This document shows, one piece after another, positions 5,614-57,410 of a DNA stretch of 64,000 bases. Positions within the stretch are counted from its first letter, which is position 1. Each line of letters begins with the position of its first letter. This stretch comes from Octopus vulgaris (taxonomy: Eukaryota), in assembly GCA_951406725.2 (NCBI GenBank), contig OX597828.1, forward strand, positions 6,944,001 to 7,008,000. The letters are read 5' to 3'. The position numbers and the translations under genes are program-made. The notes beneath the pieces are model-generated. The model worked only from the letters and a program-made list of their open reading frames with translations, was not told the DNA's origin and did no database searches.

Positions 5614-5794
5614 CGCGTGTGTACCGTCTTCCCTTCCTTGGACCTTTCCTTTTCCTATGTTTCTGACGAAGAGCTCCGCTCGAAACGTTAAACCCTCCTT
5701 CTACCCTTCCTTCCTGAGCGTCCAATAATACTATATTTGTTCCACGTCCTCGCATTGTCGTGTTTTCTCTTTGTGTTTTCATGTTTGGATTAAC
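5614..5794 (+). mobile_element. Short hammerhead-bearing element (family H1, Penelope pLTR-like), 3' end at (TA)n
   Basis: Homologous to 52594-52795 and 12994-13176; contains an HHR motif; ends TTTGGATTAAC(TA)n. Confidence 0.8.
5659..5693 (+). ncRNA. Minimal type I hammerhead ribozyme motif
   Basis: GUUU-CUGACGA-A-GAGC(UCC)GCUC-GAAA-CG-U-U-AAAC: stem I GUUU/AAAC, intact core, palindromic ACGU stem III. Confidence 0.8.
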
Positions 5795-5806
5795 TATATA
5801 TATATA

Positions 5807-6621
5807 CGTGGTTTGATCAATAAGTATCCGGTCCGGCCTATTGCCATAGTAACACTCAGAGTAAAACTGCTTGGCAAGATTGATTGCTGTGCATGATCAC
5901 TAAGTTTTAACGTTCTAGCTCGCTTTCGCTATTTACAGCAGTGCTTAGAAGGAAAGTGTGTAGCGTGTGATCGTCGCATTGATCGTGACAGAGAGAGTTG
6001 AGGAGCGAGAATCTGCATCAAACGTTGCCAAACGCTTGACGATGCCTGCTTAGAAGCCTACGCGAAGTTTGCAAAAAGTTTTCATTGTTCTCGACACAAT
6101 CAAGGAGAACTTGTGCAATTGAAATCCGAGTGTCTTTTTGGTCAGCTGAAAGCAGCTTTGGCAACAAGCATGTCATACCTAAATCTTCAGTGATAATGGA
6201 CTGAATTAAACCGTAACTAATCTGCACATCCTCTGATAACTTACGGATGGTGACTCGACAAGTTCCTCTCACAGCTGCACGCACATCTGCGATGTTTTTC
6301 TCAGTTCTGCTGGTTGCGGGTTTCCCAAATCTTTCGTCCCTATCGACATTTTTCGGCCATCTTGGAAACGTCTGAACCATTCTTACACTTGTGGGTGGCT
6401 CATACATTCCTCTCCATACAATTTCTGCGACTTTGTATAGGCCTCGGAGCAGGTATCGCCATGACAACTTTCTCTGTCATGGTCGATCACAAGCACTGCT
6501 GTAAACAGCAGAAGTGAGCTGGAACGTCGAAACTTAGTGCACGTACACAGCAGTCGATCTTTGCCAAGTGGCTGTACTCTGCGTGATTTAGGTTCGTTAC
6601 TATGGCAACAGTCTGGATACT
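5807..6621. mobile_element. Mariner-derived element made of two inverted 5' ends
   Basis: 5807-6080 (+) and 6065-6621 (-) both start with the same TIR/5'UTR (..AGTATCC.G..TTGCCATAGTAAC). The minus arm encodes a mariner HTH region (RFGKPATSRTEKNIADVRAAV..VTIRKLSEDV..LLPKLLSADQK). Confidence 0.8.
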
Positions 6622-6754
6622 ATATGTAAGTTTAATTACATTGTTGCTACTGAGAGTCTCGTTTTTGAGTATTCATTCAGGCGACGAAGATATGAAAAAA
6701 TCTCGAATAAGGACTTATTTGATCCACCTGGCAAGTCCTTGGTTCCAGTGCATA

Positions 6755-7167
6755 CTCTTGTTACTCTTTTACTTGTTTCAGTCATTTAACTGCGGCCATG
6801 CTGGAGTACCGCCTTTAGTCGAGCAAATCGACCTCAGGACTTATTCTTTGTAAGCCTAGTACTTATTCCATCGGTCTCTTTTGCCGAACCGCTAAGTTAC
6901 GGGGGGACATAAACACACCAGCATCGGTTGTCAAGTGATGTTCGGGGGACAAACACAGACACAACCACACACACACACATATATATATATACATATATAC
7001 ATATATACGACGGGCTTCTTTTCAGTTTCCGTCTACCAAATCCACTCACAAGGCTTTGGTCAGCCCGAGGCTATAGTAGAAGACATTTGCCGAAGGTGCC
7101 ACGCAGTGGGACTGAACTCGGAACCATGTGATTGGTAAGCAAGCTACTTACCACACAGCCACTCCTG
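6755..7167 (-). mobile_element. SINE family A, full length
   Basis: High similarity to the other family A copies. Confidence 0.9.
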
Positions 7168-7480
7168 TGTGTGACTGTGGATTTGAACTGGTTAATCAGC
7201 CTTCCTATTTTCCTGATTTGGCCCCATTGACTACCATCTGTTCCCCAATATGAAAAATACTTGGCTGGGAACCAGTATCGCAGTGATGATGACGTCATAT
7301 CTGCTGATAATGACTTTTTGCACCAATGAAATGAAAGCTTTTTCAAAAATAGGATCCAAGCACTGCACATCCGATGGAAGAATTGACAGGGACCGAAAGT
7401 GAAACTATGTTGAAAAATAAACCTCGTTTTGTCACGTGAGTGTATCTTGGTCAGCCTATGAACTTTTCAGCGGACCCACG
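7168..7480 (+). mobile_element. Mariner 3' fragment with right TIR
   Basis: Decayed DCGFELV.QPSYFPDLAP.DYHLFPNMK..YRSDDDVISA..YVEK*, followed by a GAACTTTTCAGCGGACCCACG end. Confidence 0.85.
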
Positions 7481-7993
7481 AGCGTGAACATGCGTGTGTG
7501 TATGTGTGTGCGTATGTGTGTGCGTGCGTGTGTGGATGGATGGATGGATCGATGGATGGATGTTATTTATTCGGGTCTTTGCGTTTTGATAGACGGTCTA
7601 AGAAAAGGAGTGTGTCTTAAGTGCATAAACTCTTCTTCCTGCAGCTTCTCATAACCACATGGTGCCTACTGACCTGTAATCACCCACTACTATTTCCATC
7701 ACAATTTAAATAGGACAATCAACGCTGACAATCAACGCTGAAATCTATTTAAAATACCACATGACTATAAGGAATGTAGAATAATTCAAAGAAAAAGTGT
7801 TCTATAACAACTACCAAACGGTCCAGTTAAATTTGTCAACGTCAACGAGGACTGCCGCTTGGTGCTACGCAAACAATTAGTTGTGAATAGCAACTTATCA
7901 TTGAACAACATGATTTACTATTACCACTAACAAGCCTGATACAAACTAATAAAGGGGAGAATTACTTCTTGAACAGGGACCGGTACACCCCTT

Positions 7994-54133: not shown

Positions 54134-54460
54134 GAAGGCGCGTGGCTTAGTGGTTAGGCTATTTGGCTCGCGATCGTAAGAGCTCATGAGTTCGGATCTC
54201 GGTGGTGCTTTTTAACCTAGGGCAATACATTTTATTTCACGTTGCTCCTGGTCATACAAGTGGCAAAAATGAGTTGCACCTGGAATTTAAATGGCCAGCT
54301 TTGTCACAGTCTATGTCACACTGCATCACCCTATGACTATACGTTAAGGGTACGCGCGTCTGTGGAGTACTCGGCCATTGGCACGTTCATTTCACGAGCA
54401 GATTTTTTTATTGGGCGATTCAGTTTTAACACACTCGATGTCGTAGCCGATGGAATGCCA
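54134..54460 (+). mobile_element. SINE family D
   Basis: Homologous to 29933-30254. Confidence 0.8.
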
Positions 54461-56261
54461 GTTTTATTTATTTATACATGTGCGTGTGTGTGTGTGTGTG
54501 TGTGTGTGTGTGTGTGTGTGTGTGTGTGTGTGCGTGCGTGCGTGTGTGCGTGTGTGCGTGTGTGCGTGTGTGTGTGTGTGTGTGTGTGAAAGTGTGTGTG
54601 TGTGTCCCACACAGGAAAGGAAAAAATATAGGAGAATTTATTTCTGAAAATGCACCTGAATTTGAAAAGTGTGTATTTGCTTATATAGATAGATAGATAG
54701 ATAGATAGATAGATAGATAGATAGATAGATAGATAGATAGATAGATACATACATACATACATACATACATACATACATACATATATACATACATAGAAAC
54801 ATACATGCATACATACAAACATACATATATACATACATACATACATACATACATAAATATATACACAGATCATTCCTACATACATACATACATACATACA
54901 TACATACATACATACATACATACATACATACATACATACACACACACACACATACAGACGCACAAACATACAGGCATATACGTTCAGGAGCTGATGCATA
55001 ATAAAACTATAAAAGCATTGATACGTATGCACGCACACTACGTACACCCATACGTACACGAATACCTGGTTGATGCTGTCCATATTCCAGTAAAAGAGTT
55101 TTGTCTCCAAGCTGGGGACCCTTTCTCCTTCTATTGGTTGCGTATTTCAGTGATAAATCCTGATGAGTAAACATACATATACGCATTAACACGTACATGT
55201 TTACATATATACACAAATACAAAGCAAAACATATGCATACATATATTCATATATACAAACATTTATGTATATATATAATATATATACATGCGTACATGTA
55301 CTTATATACATGCGTGCATATTGATTGACTCTTTGAAGAAAAAACGAATTCCAACCTTTCACAGATTATCACTATGAGCGGAACAAAGAAATTCTACAAA
55401 AGTTTCATAGAATAATGAATAGCTGTGAAAAGAGCGTCAGAGAGAAAAACAAAACGCTTCATTATTTTGTTTTTTATTCATTCGTACAAATTTGCTGCCA
55501 CATACTGAGATTGATCAGGTATCAAACATAGAAAATTCAATCAGGAAGGAATATAATTTGTATACAGGTTGTGCTGCAAGGCATAGCTTTCATCGGAAGT
55601 CTACAGGTGGTATCTTATGATTGCAGTACCTTTTCATATTTTTGCTGTCTCCAGTGATGACAAGCAATGTGGAAATAACATGGTTAGATTCGGGAATTTA
55701 AAGTACTCGATTCTCTGTTTCTCTGCATCCAAAGTCTCTTAAATCAGAAGCAGCTGGGTCTACACTTACAGCGTACAACAAAGGCCCCCACTTAATTATT
55801 AGGCGAAGGGAGAGAAAGGAAAACAATACTTGCTTAGTAAGAGGCGTAAGTATGGCCGAATCATACAAAGCTTACTTCGTAATGGTGTGGTACCGCGTTC
55901 CATCTCTTGCGTGACATCATGGGCATGTGCTTTTTACCATTGCTCTGAGACAAACCAAATTTTGTTGGTAAACCTTAGGGGACAGCAATGGTTTGGAATC
56001 CCATTAATTCAAAAGCTTAACCATGTCACATGCGTTAATTAAAAAAATCTAACCGTATCATGATCCATCCGAGGAAGTACATAACAACAAATACGTGAGG
56101 GATATACTTAACAATTAAAATCAGGGATTCTCAACTATTTTTTGCATTTGGTTCCCTTTTATTCCTATTTCAAGTCGGGGGTGAGGCCTGCATAGCTATT
56201 CGATGTCTAAAATTCCTGTTATATTTTTATGATTACGTATTATTAGGAACTGTGTTAGGAA

Positions 56262-56660
56262 TTCTCTTTTACTCTTTTACTTGTTTCAGTCACTTGATTG
56301 CGGCCATGCTGGAGCAGCGCCTTTAGTCGAGCAAATCGACTCCAGGACATATTATTTGTAAGCCTAGTACTTATTCTATCAGTCTCTTTTACCGAACTGC
56401 TAAGTTACGGGGACGTAAACACACCAACATCGGTTATCGAGCGATGTTGGGGAACAAACAAAGACACACAAACATATACACACACATATATATATACGAC
56501 AGGCTTCTTTCACTTTCCGACAACCAAATCCACTCACAAGGCTTTGGTCGGCCCAAGGTTATAGTAGAAGACACTTGCCCAAGGTGCCACGCAGTGGGAC
56601 TGAACACGGAACCATGTGGTTGGTAAGCAAGCTACTTACCACACATCCACTCATACGCCT
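56262..56660 (-). mobile_element. SINE family A, full length
   Basis: Head to tail present. Confidence 0.9.
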
Positions 56661-57098
56661 ATATTTTTTGTGTTGTAGAAATATAACCAGTTTATTTCAC
56701 ACAAATTCTAACAACAAAATCTCATACGGATCCCGATCGGGAACCACCAATTTAAATGCTAATTCAACGAGAAAGCTCTTCTGTTTCTGGCAATTTTGGA
56801 GCAATCATCGCAGAAACAGACGGAGATTCATTTACACTAGCTGGAAGATGTGGATCAATACCCATAAATATTTGCAATACAATCCAGACTTGATGCACTT
56901 CAAACGGTTGCTGCCCTGTTTTAGTATCGGTTGGTTTAATATTTGCAGCGAAAATATGAGCAGGAGGGGTTGACTGAATAATTAATCCATGTTTTCGAAA
57001 ATAGAAATGATATCGAAAATAGAAATATTACATTTCTAAATCTCTCAGTGAATGTATTTCACTAGAAATATATAGGTTTTCAAAGGCGAATAGGCATC

Positions 57099-57170
57099 GA
57101 CAGCTAGCAGGCCTTGCTACTCCAGACTGACGATGAGCAATGACTCTGAAACTAGTCTCTGGTTGCTGTC
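57099..57170 (+). ncRNA. Type I hammerhead ribozyme motif
   Basis: CCAGA-CUGACGA-U-GAG(CAAUGA)CUC-U-GAAA-CUAG-U-C-UCUGG; outer GACAGC/GCUGUC pairing; predicted cleavage after C57157. Confidence 0.75.
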
Positions 57171-57410
57171 TTTGCTGAGTGGAGGTGCTTATCTCCCCCT
57201 TTGAAAACATAAACACAGAAAATGTGTCGTGACCAGCTGGAGACGGTCTTTTCTGGGCTAGATAGTACTAGCATTCTATACTTCCAGGGGACTGTCACAT
57301 TAAGTTGACAACATACCATCCCTATATATATATATATATACATATATATATATATATATATATATATATATATATATATATATATATATATATATATATA
57401 TATATATATA

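Follow-up and report, generated by a model that had tools for sequence, protein, structure and literature searches.

Hammerhead motifs in a 64 kb stretch of the Octopus vulgaris genome probably lie at the ends of several Penelope-like element lineages and in their non-autonomous passengers

Minimal type I hammerhead ribozymes at the ends of Penelope-like elements (PLEs) and beside (TA)n tracts have been described previously, as has a U3-A8 variant of the fold (PMC4209133). (TA)n targeting has been described for Neptune/Nematis and Hydra clade PLEs, a CX2-5CxxC linker is common to Neptune and Nematis, and tandem wrapping and inversion are listed among the marks of PLE copies, while the function of the hammerhead in PLEs is described as unclear (PMC8557442). 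PLE transcripts are reported to begin in the pseudo-long terminal repeat (pLTR) (PMC6765202). These statements, and the comparisons below, draw on portions of each published account. Here, we analysed a 64,000 bp stretch of O. vulgaris DNA (contig OX597828.1, in our numbering G000:C15:6944001-7008000; here called the window), part of a 2.8-Gb assembly, that has a GC content of 38% and many simple repeats and in which 12 hammerhead sites had been listed from the sequence (the original prediction). The motifs are real and mostly of the known kind, namely the ends of several PLE lineages and of non-autonomous passengers; altered catalytic cores, a defined start point in one family and a short element with a tRNA-like head are variant features. 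We put the probability of this joint explanation, including the mechanism outlined below, at about 0.8. Literature searches on octopus hammerheads and on octopus Penelope/Neptune elements returned no direct match.

The minimal type I descriptor used here combined the catalytic core with stems I and II of at least 3 bp each and a self-complementary stem III of 4–8 nt. It found seven exact-core matches in the window (5663+, 11777+, 13123−, 16515−, 44507−, 52317+ and 57127+) and an eighth (12848+) only when one core mismatch was allowed. Eight of the 12 listed sites pass, and the five palindromes that the original prediction had named are present. The remaining four fail the descriptor, yet are homologous and represent decayed copies: the GAAA box is mutated at 18317, there are two core changes at 38746, stem III is ACGC at 44572 and stem I is down to 2 bp at 52722. 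The shuffled-sequence check that had been proposed came out clearly, as 30 block-wise dinucleotide shuffles gave no match, strict or relaxed. In 20 evenly placed 10-kb stretches of the genome (200 kb), there were six exact-core and eight relaxed matches, one of the latter AT-rich and doubtful, and none in five shuffles. The sampled density is approximately one per 25–33 kb, a coarse estimate at this sample size, and the window is some 3–4 times richer, so the predicted density of about one per 6 kb holds only locally. Extrapolation from the six matches gives, with a wide margin, very roughly 84,000 hammerheads per genome. Exact-pattern searches of the assembly found 33,619 cores of the type seen in families A, B and C (see Table 1) and 1,802 of the family D type, while reversed controls found none. 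The A/B/C-type cores occur approximately once per 50 kb in the first 5 Mb of chromosome 1 and once per 83 kb genome-wide. Family D cores are unevenly spread on chromosome 1, with 17 of the first 100 listed falling within the first 6 Mb and about 40 at 100–118 Mb. Among the 150 listed of 405 Rfam matches in the window, no hammerhead family was found, only simple-repeat microRNA look-alikes, and there was none for the family E site searched alone; a genome with tens of thousands of hammerhead folds is thus one in which Rfam calls none among these listed matches.

For each family, one copy was used to query the octopus genome, and loci with copies or coding relatives were fetched (L numbers below). 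Families A, B and C, which cover six sites, are related because they have in common stem II, a stem III of ACGU and a motif further downstream, and the suggestion of at least five unrelated elements is not upheld. Judged by their sequence, seven sites (families A, B and H, with C placed by homology) are the 3' ends (pLTRs) of protein-coding PLEs. Pieces of PLE reading frame lie upstream of some A copies, and a search with one of them gave a list of at least 150 scored positions, many of which lie within open frames of 800–1,061 amino acids (aa). Of these, 20 regions with an open reading frame (ORF), picked for a high score or a long frame, were fetched. An A-type hammerhead pLTR was present in 18, and in 15 it was downstream of the ORF. 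A-type elements are made up of a pLTR, an ORF of 1008–1061 aa, an approximately 2.7 kb low-complexity untranslated region (UTR) and a second pLTR followed by (TA)n. The ORF matches the Pfam reverse transcriptase (RT) domain RVT_1 (E 0.0006–0.002), then GIY-YIG (E 0.008–0.015), and includes a CX4CxxC linker. Partial tandems and 5' truncation accompany the hammerhead pLTR in these elements, and the terminal pLTR of one of them, L201, is 93% identical over 104 nt to the window copy at 5659. Five of 30 B loci continue into an endonuclease frame, the frames being 58–73% identical to the A-type protein, and the window B copy (12053–12974) begins just behind that frame. Family H is distinct. All 19 copies have the U3-A8 core, and the three longest copies that were inspected all run into an endonuclease-like (GIY-YIG-like) frame unlike the A-type one. 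The Penelope-like origin that had been proposed is borne out, and at least three types of PLE endonuclease are represented among the fetched loci.

Further coding sequences were seen in the fetched loci. The first 1.5 kb of L004 (minus strand) contains a PLE 3' end that combines a different endonuclease with a long UTR, (TA)n and a hammerhead-like motif of its own. This endonuclease type resembles the description of the Hydra clade, and related frames are present in L222, L169 and L077. Divergent PLE frames with 29–31% identity to the A-type protein were found at L228:8496–9995 (minus strand) and in L047, and are candidate partners of the non-coding families.

The distance from the predicted cleavage site to (TA)4 is 96–106 nt at four window sites and 166 and 178 nt at two others, in agreement with the distances given originally. 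In 26 of 29 A copies chosen by their 5' end alone (one of 30 loci could not be aligned), (TA)4 is found 93–112 nt past the predicted cleavage site. It is at 103–113 nt in 27 of 29 other A copies, found with a query that contained 6 nt of TA, and at 103–109 nt in 27 of 29 B copies, against a background of 3.6%. However, A copies sit inside (TA)n tracts, with (TA)4 also within 400 nt upstream in 21 of 29. The polarity toward (TA)n noted in the original prediction is therefore one of fixed 3' distance and not of TA on one side. Where units are joined in tandem inside an element, the position at which solo copies stop is followed by a TA-like stretch that belongs to the element itself. (TA)4 is also common in families G (17/19 within 245 nt) and E (12/19, at either end), and (TA)n targeting is upheld for several families. 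It is weak or absent at the ends of H (6/19), F (4/19 within 245 nt) and D (1/18), and one enzyme therefore does not explain all of the families. The site at 11772 (family G) had been listed as an exception to (TA)n adjacency; this is true of the window copy, which is cut by another repeat, but not of the family.

The 5' ends of A copies are also informative. A total of 29 scored copies reach a point 112 nt upstream of the predicted cleavage site, and 24 of them have their start no more than 1 nt away from this point, while the parent sequence extends further upstream. A further 29 A copies begin from 1 nt before to 46 nt after this point, and L020 reaches beyond it. Many A copies thus appear to behave as a defined solo-pLTR unit, and the start site resembles what we take to be the consensus of an initiator element. 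The 5' ends of B copies are scattered over approximately 600 nt. Outside the search anchors, 21 A and 7 B rows were found, some of them duplicates of window or anchor copies, and in none does the start fall at the predicted cleavage site. As neither end of a copy corresponds to the cleavage site, the template would have been uncut or re-ligated, and it seems that mostly uncut RNA was copied. In L034 (1290–1500) and L042 (1417–1500), internal ORF pieces are fused exactly at the A start point, as if the RT had switched templates at the 5' end of a short RNA.

The following route would account for these ends. A PLE endonuclease would nick (TA)n DNA, and the nicked end would pair with the TA-like RNA stretch approximately 100 nt 3' of the hammerhead and prime the RT, which would copy back through the hammerhead and usually halt early, which would leave short ends with a constant spacing to (TA)n. 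The source of most A copies would be an approximately 220 nt stretch of RNA with a fixed start in the pLTR that is probably the transcription start. Families E, F, G and D would borrow PLE enzymes in trans, in the case of D and probably F from a lineage with no TA preference. The template would be mostly uncut (or re-ligated) at the hammerhead, with any cleavage probably slow and dimer-dependent. A literature search on priming found no direct match.

Different families meet tail-to-tail or head-to-head in a shared (TA)n tract at window positions 12974–12993, 52524–52593 and 5597–5613, and comparable pile-ups in (TA)n tracts were seen in L006, L036, L045, L048 and L211. Another repeat, family I (59011–59336 on the plus strand and 5480–5598 on the minus strand), ends at (TA)n and has hammerhead-like core boxes. 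It was considered as a further hammerhead (59207/5480) and rejected, as it failed the descriptor and had neither stem I nor a palindromic stem III in 11 rows; it may be a PLE end whose fold has decayed or is of another kind.

Altered catalytic cores predominate in the A/B/C group. In a hand count of the first 100 listed of the 33,619 matches, all on chromosome 1, 16 were canonical, 61 had A6U, 22 had U4C and one had both, a total of 84 altered cores. Position 7 takes all four bases in the A6U group (U 24, A 19, C 11, G 7). The search pattern fixed the other core positions, and these counts say nothing about their conservation. U4C is found in 17 of the 18 pLTRs of coding A-type elements, and A6U in 29 of 29 family B copies. 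The core is canonical in D, F, G, C and both window A copies, and E, like H, has U3-A8. U4C in a viroid reduced activity in vitro to a much lower level, and A6C in a phage had low activity (PMC3088659). A literature search on A6U found no hammerhead paper.

The window is not made up of coding PLE ends alone. The original prediction had treated the sites as non-autonomous elements, which holds for E, F, G and D, all of which are non-coding, but most sites are 5'-truncated ends of coding PLEs. In families E, F and G, the upstream flank of a unit leads back into the 3' end of the same unit, inverted arms occur often and two alternative 3' ends are seen, features that PMC8557442 lists as marks of PLEs. 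Partial tandems are common, and in E loci L116 and L123 there are two direct hammerheads per locus, while no long arrays of E, F or G units were found in the 3-kb loci. Genomic E copies are 97–99% identical. A search of sequencing runs with the E unit listed assembled contigs and no RNA data set, which speaks neither for nor against expression. Comparison of E with a 76% identical relative in L222, a single sequence pair, revealed compensatory change at two pairs in stem I and one in stem II, with the stem III palindrome kept. In minimum-energy homodimer folding, a dimeric hammerhead was obtained for E and G, and not for six others tested. The window E copy begins 1 nt from the cleavage site, and a start there was considered for E insertions and rejected, as the starts of secondary pieces do not cluster at that point. 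The window G copy is interrupted by a purine-rich stretch (about 11424–11733), which, judging by its appearance, may be a fragment of a B-type 3' UTR in inverted orientation. Families E, F and G fit proposals for retrozymes, as what would be truly non-autonomous derivatives of PLEs. In a tblastn search that used two PLE proteins as queries, no frame turned up upstream of E, F or G (19 genomic loci each) or of D copies; the same search also missed the H frame, and so is not sensitive to all clades.

Family D differs in its flanks. The window insertion is bounded by a 13 bp target-site duplication with one mismatch (44411–44423 and 44701–44713). The (TA)n tract into which the 44567 motif was said to run lies outside the insertion, beginning 24 nt beyond the end of the element, and that claim does not hold. 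A match to the Rfam family MIR9486 at 44480–44600 is the D inverted repeat. Duplications scoring at least 8 were found in 7 of 12 inverted D copies versus 2 of 132 mismatched-pair controls. D insertions lie in ordinary sequence, and the 1,802 exact core matches represent dispersed copies. Longer copies open with a 78 nt head followed by (AAT)n, and the head is linked to the D body in 25 of 39 other top insertions, by our tally and from a query that favours the head; the window copy does not include it. By eye, the head resembles tRNA-type A and B boxes, as we presume their consensus to be. ARAGORN called no tRNA in any of nine loci, and Rfam returned no tRNA match for either of two heads. Family D looks like a tRNA-headed short element, an apparent short interspersed nuclear element (SINE), with PLE-type integration marks. 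No autonomous partner of D was seen among the fetched loci, and no search aimed at one was made. Searches that covered neither most subscription journals nor Repbase turned up no publication in which a tRNA-headed SINE shows PLE-type integration.

The features identified in the window are listed in Table 1. The window also contains a mariner-type transposase remnant at 9578–10318 on the plus strand (Pfam Transposase_1, E 2e-21), a similar-looking piece at 6018–6476 on the minus strand that has no Pfam match, and a weak match to a MULE transposase at 21666–22043 on the minus strand (E 0.009, under the cut-off).

Table 1. Hammerhead-bearing features assigned in the window
Feature	Position	Strand	Details
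Family A solo pLTR (3' end), putative Neptune/Nematis-type PLE	5614..5795	+	canonical core 5663; predicted cleavage after 5689; (TA)n both sides
Family G, ~450-bp non-coding unit	11350..11900	+	core 11777; 8-nt palindromic stem III; predicted cleavage after 11835; 3' side cut by another repeat
Family B, 5'-truncated PLE (nearly whole 3' UTR and pLTR)	12053..12974	+	core CUGUUGA (A6U) 12848; predicted cleavage after 12875; (TA)n both sides
Family C pLTR, kin of A and B	12994..13178	-	canonical core 13123; tail-to-tail with B across one (TA)n tract
Family H, 3' end of a different coding PLE	16390..16572	-	U3-A8 core 16515; 3-bp stem I
B-type pLTR, decayed	18284..18445	+	A6U core; GAAA box mutated
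B-type pLTR, other subfamily, decayed core	38656..38838	-	
One family D insertion	44411..44713	both	inverted 5'-truncated arm 44423-44531 (minus, core 44507) joined to direct arm ending 44700 (core 44572, stem III mutated)
Family E, partial tandem of 365-bp non-coding unit	51984..52524	+	U3-A8 core 52317; 6-bp stem I; predicted cleavage after 52346
Second family A solo pLTR	52594..52795	-	core 52722; weakened stem I; tail-to-tail with E across (TA)n tract
Family F, ~350-bp non-coding unit	56995..57322	+	core 57127; U.U mismatch at base of 3-bp stem II

Three other explanations were weighed against this one. If the motifs were chance folds or DNA palindromes, the (TA)n adjacency would only reflect a TA-rich window, and (TA)4 is indeed found in 10.5% of 45 nt window stretches, the adjacency at 44567 is a coincidence and Rfam offers no hammerhead match. 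The empty shuffles, the tens of thousands of exact genomic matches set against none for the reversed patterns, the fixed (TA)n distances and the covariation in E refute this, and we give it practically no credence. The model in the original prediction, in which every site is an independent non-autonomous ribozyme retroelement moved by one (TA)n-specific PLE enzyme, gains from the non-coding nature of E, F, G and D, from the strong (TA)n distance in A, B and G, and from the defined 5' boundary and lack of an ORF in most A copies. However, A, B and H run into coding PLEs, the B 5' ends are spread widely, most D, F and H copies lack (TA)n at their end and several endonuclease types are present. 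The model is largely refuted for B and H, and we consider it very improbable. A rolling-circle retrozyme route has been proposed (PMC4209133), in which hammerheads cut and re-ligate the unit RNA into circles and the RT passes the junction, so that copies span an intact ribozyme. The more-than-unit tandems of E, F and G are as this would predict, and the dimeric folds of E and G and the covarying stems of E also speak for it. On the other hand, it gives no reason for A copies to start so sharply 112 nt upstream of the cleavage site, most A/B/C cores are substituted, with U4C and an A6 change reported to lower activity (PMC3088659), and 8 of 9 predicted frog retrozyme dimers are reported to have failed to cleave in vitro. 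We regard it as a possible but unlikely general account; it is compatible with our explanation for E, F and G only.

Several points weigh against reading the sites as the ends of several PLE lineages and their passengers. L201, the closest coding parent of A, has a broken ORF, and the elements with an intact ORF carry a pLTR that is only approximately 77% alike. The Pfam scores for the A-type RT and GIY-YIG domains are under the curated cut-offs, the Neptune/Nematis label is a provisional one taken from the linker motif and not from a tree, and family C is placed by presumed homology and not by tracing to a coding element. No autonomous partner was found for D, E, F or G, and the top-scoring search matches are biased toward young, long copies. 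Beyond this reading, the PLE hammerhead here may be mainly a non-cleaving RNA handle for retrotransposition. The most successful lineages would have fixed A6U or U4C while keeping the fold, and uncut RNA would have been the template of insertions. Short RNAs unrelated to PLEs, among them an RNA polymerase III (Pol III) tRNA-headed SINE (D), would have gained mobility by acquiring such a fold at the 3' end. This is a speculative proposal that we consider unlikely. The genome provides a natural series in which to study the role of the hammerhead, made up of young elements with an intact ORF and an altered core, their canonical relatives, young E units and the apparent SINE D.

Compared with the PLE hammerheads described in PMC4209133, those found here have the same type I fold, short stem I, extra nucleotide after A9, palindromic stem III and, in E and H, U3-A8. 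In both cases, most motifs are single and come from truncated PLEs, a genome contains thousands of them, and pairs on opposite strands occur. The main-text portions compared report U3-A8 cores and not A6U or U4C cores, and the counts here are higher (33,619 for one superfamily). The Neptune/Nematis and Hydra clade PLEs in the portions of PMC8557442 compared share with the octopus elements a C-terminal GIY-YIG, a CX2-5CxxC linker and a (TA)n preference, as well as 5' truncation, partial tandems, inverted 5'-truncated copies and a 30–40 bp tail at one end. They differ in that the A-type elements have the long low-complexity 3' UTR.

The short families have other close counterparts. Like non-LTR (long terminal repeat) retrozymes (PMC7229834; bioRxiv 10.64898/2026.07.22.740005), in the parts of those accounts compared, E, F and G are non-coding units of 350–450 bp with a type I hammerhead and a proposed dependence on PLEs. 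Unlike them, E, F and G have minimal hammerheads and occur as dispersed partial tandems and inversions and not as long arrays. Family D is closest to the schistosome hammerhead SINE-like elements, as described in part of PMC6765202, which are likewise short and combine a Pol III head, only apparent in D, with a hammerhead. In contrast to these, neither ARAGORN nor Rfam recognises the D head as a tRNA, and D is dispersed, with a minimal PLE-type hammerhead, an (AAT)n middle and PLE-type inversions, tail and duplications.

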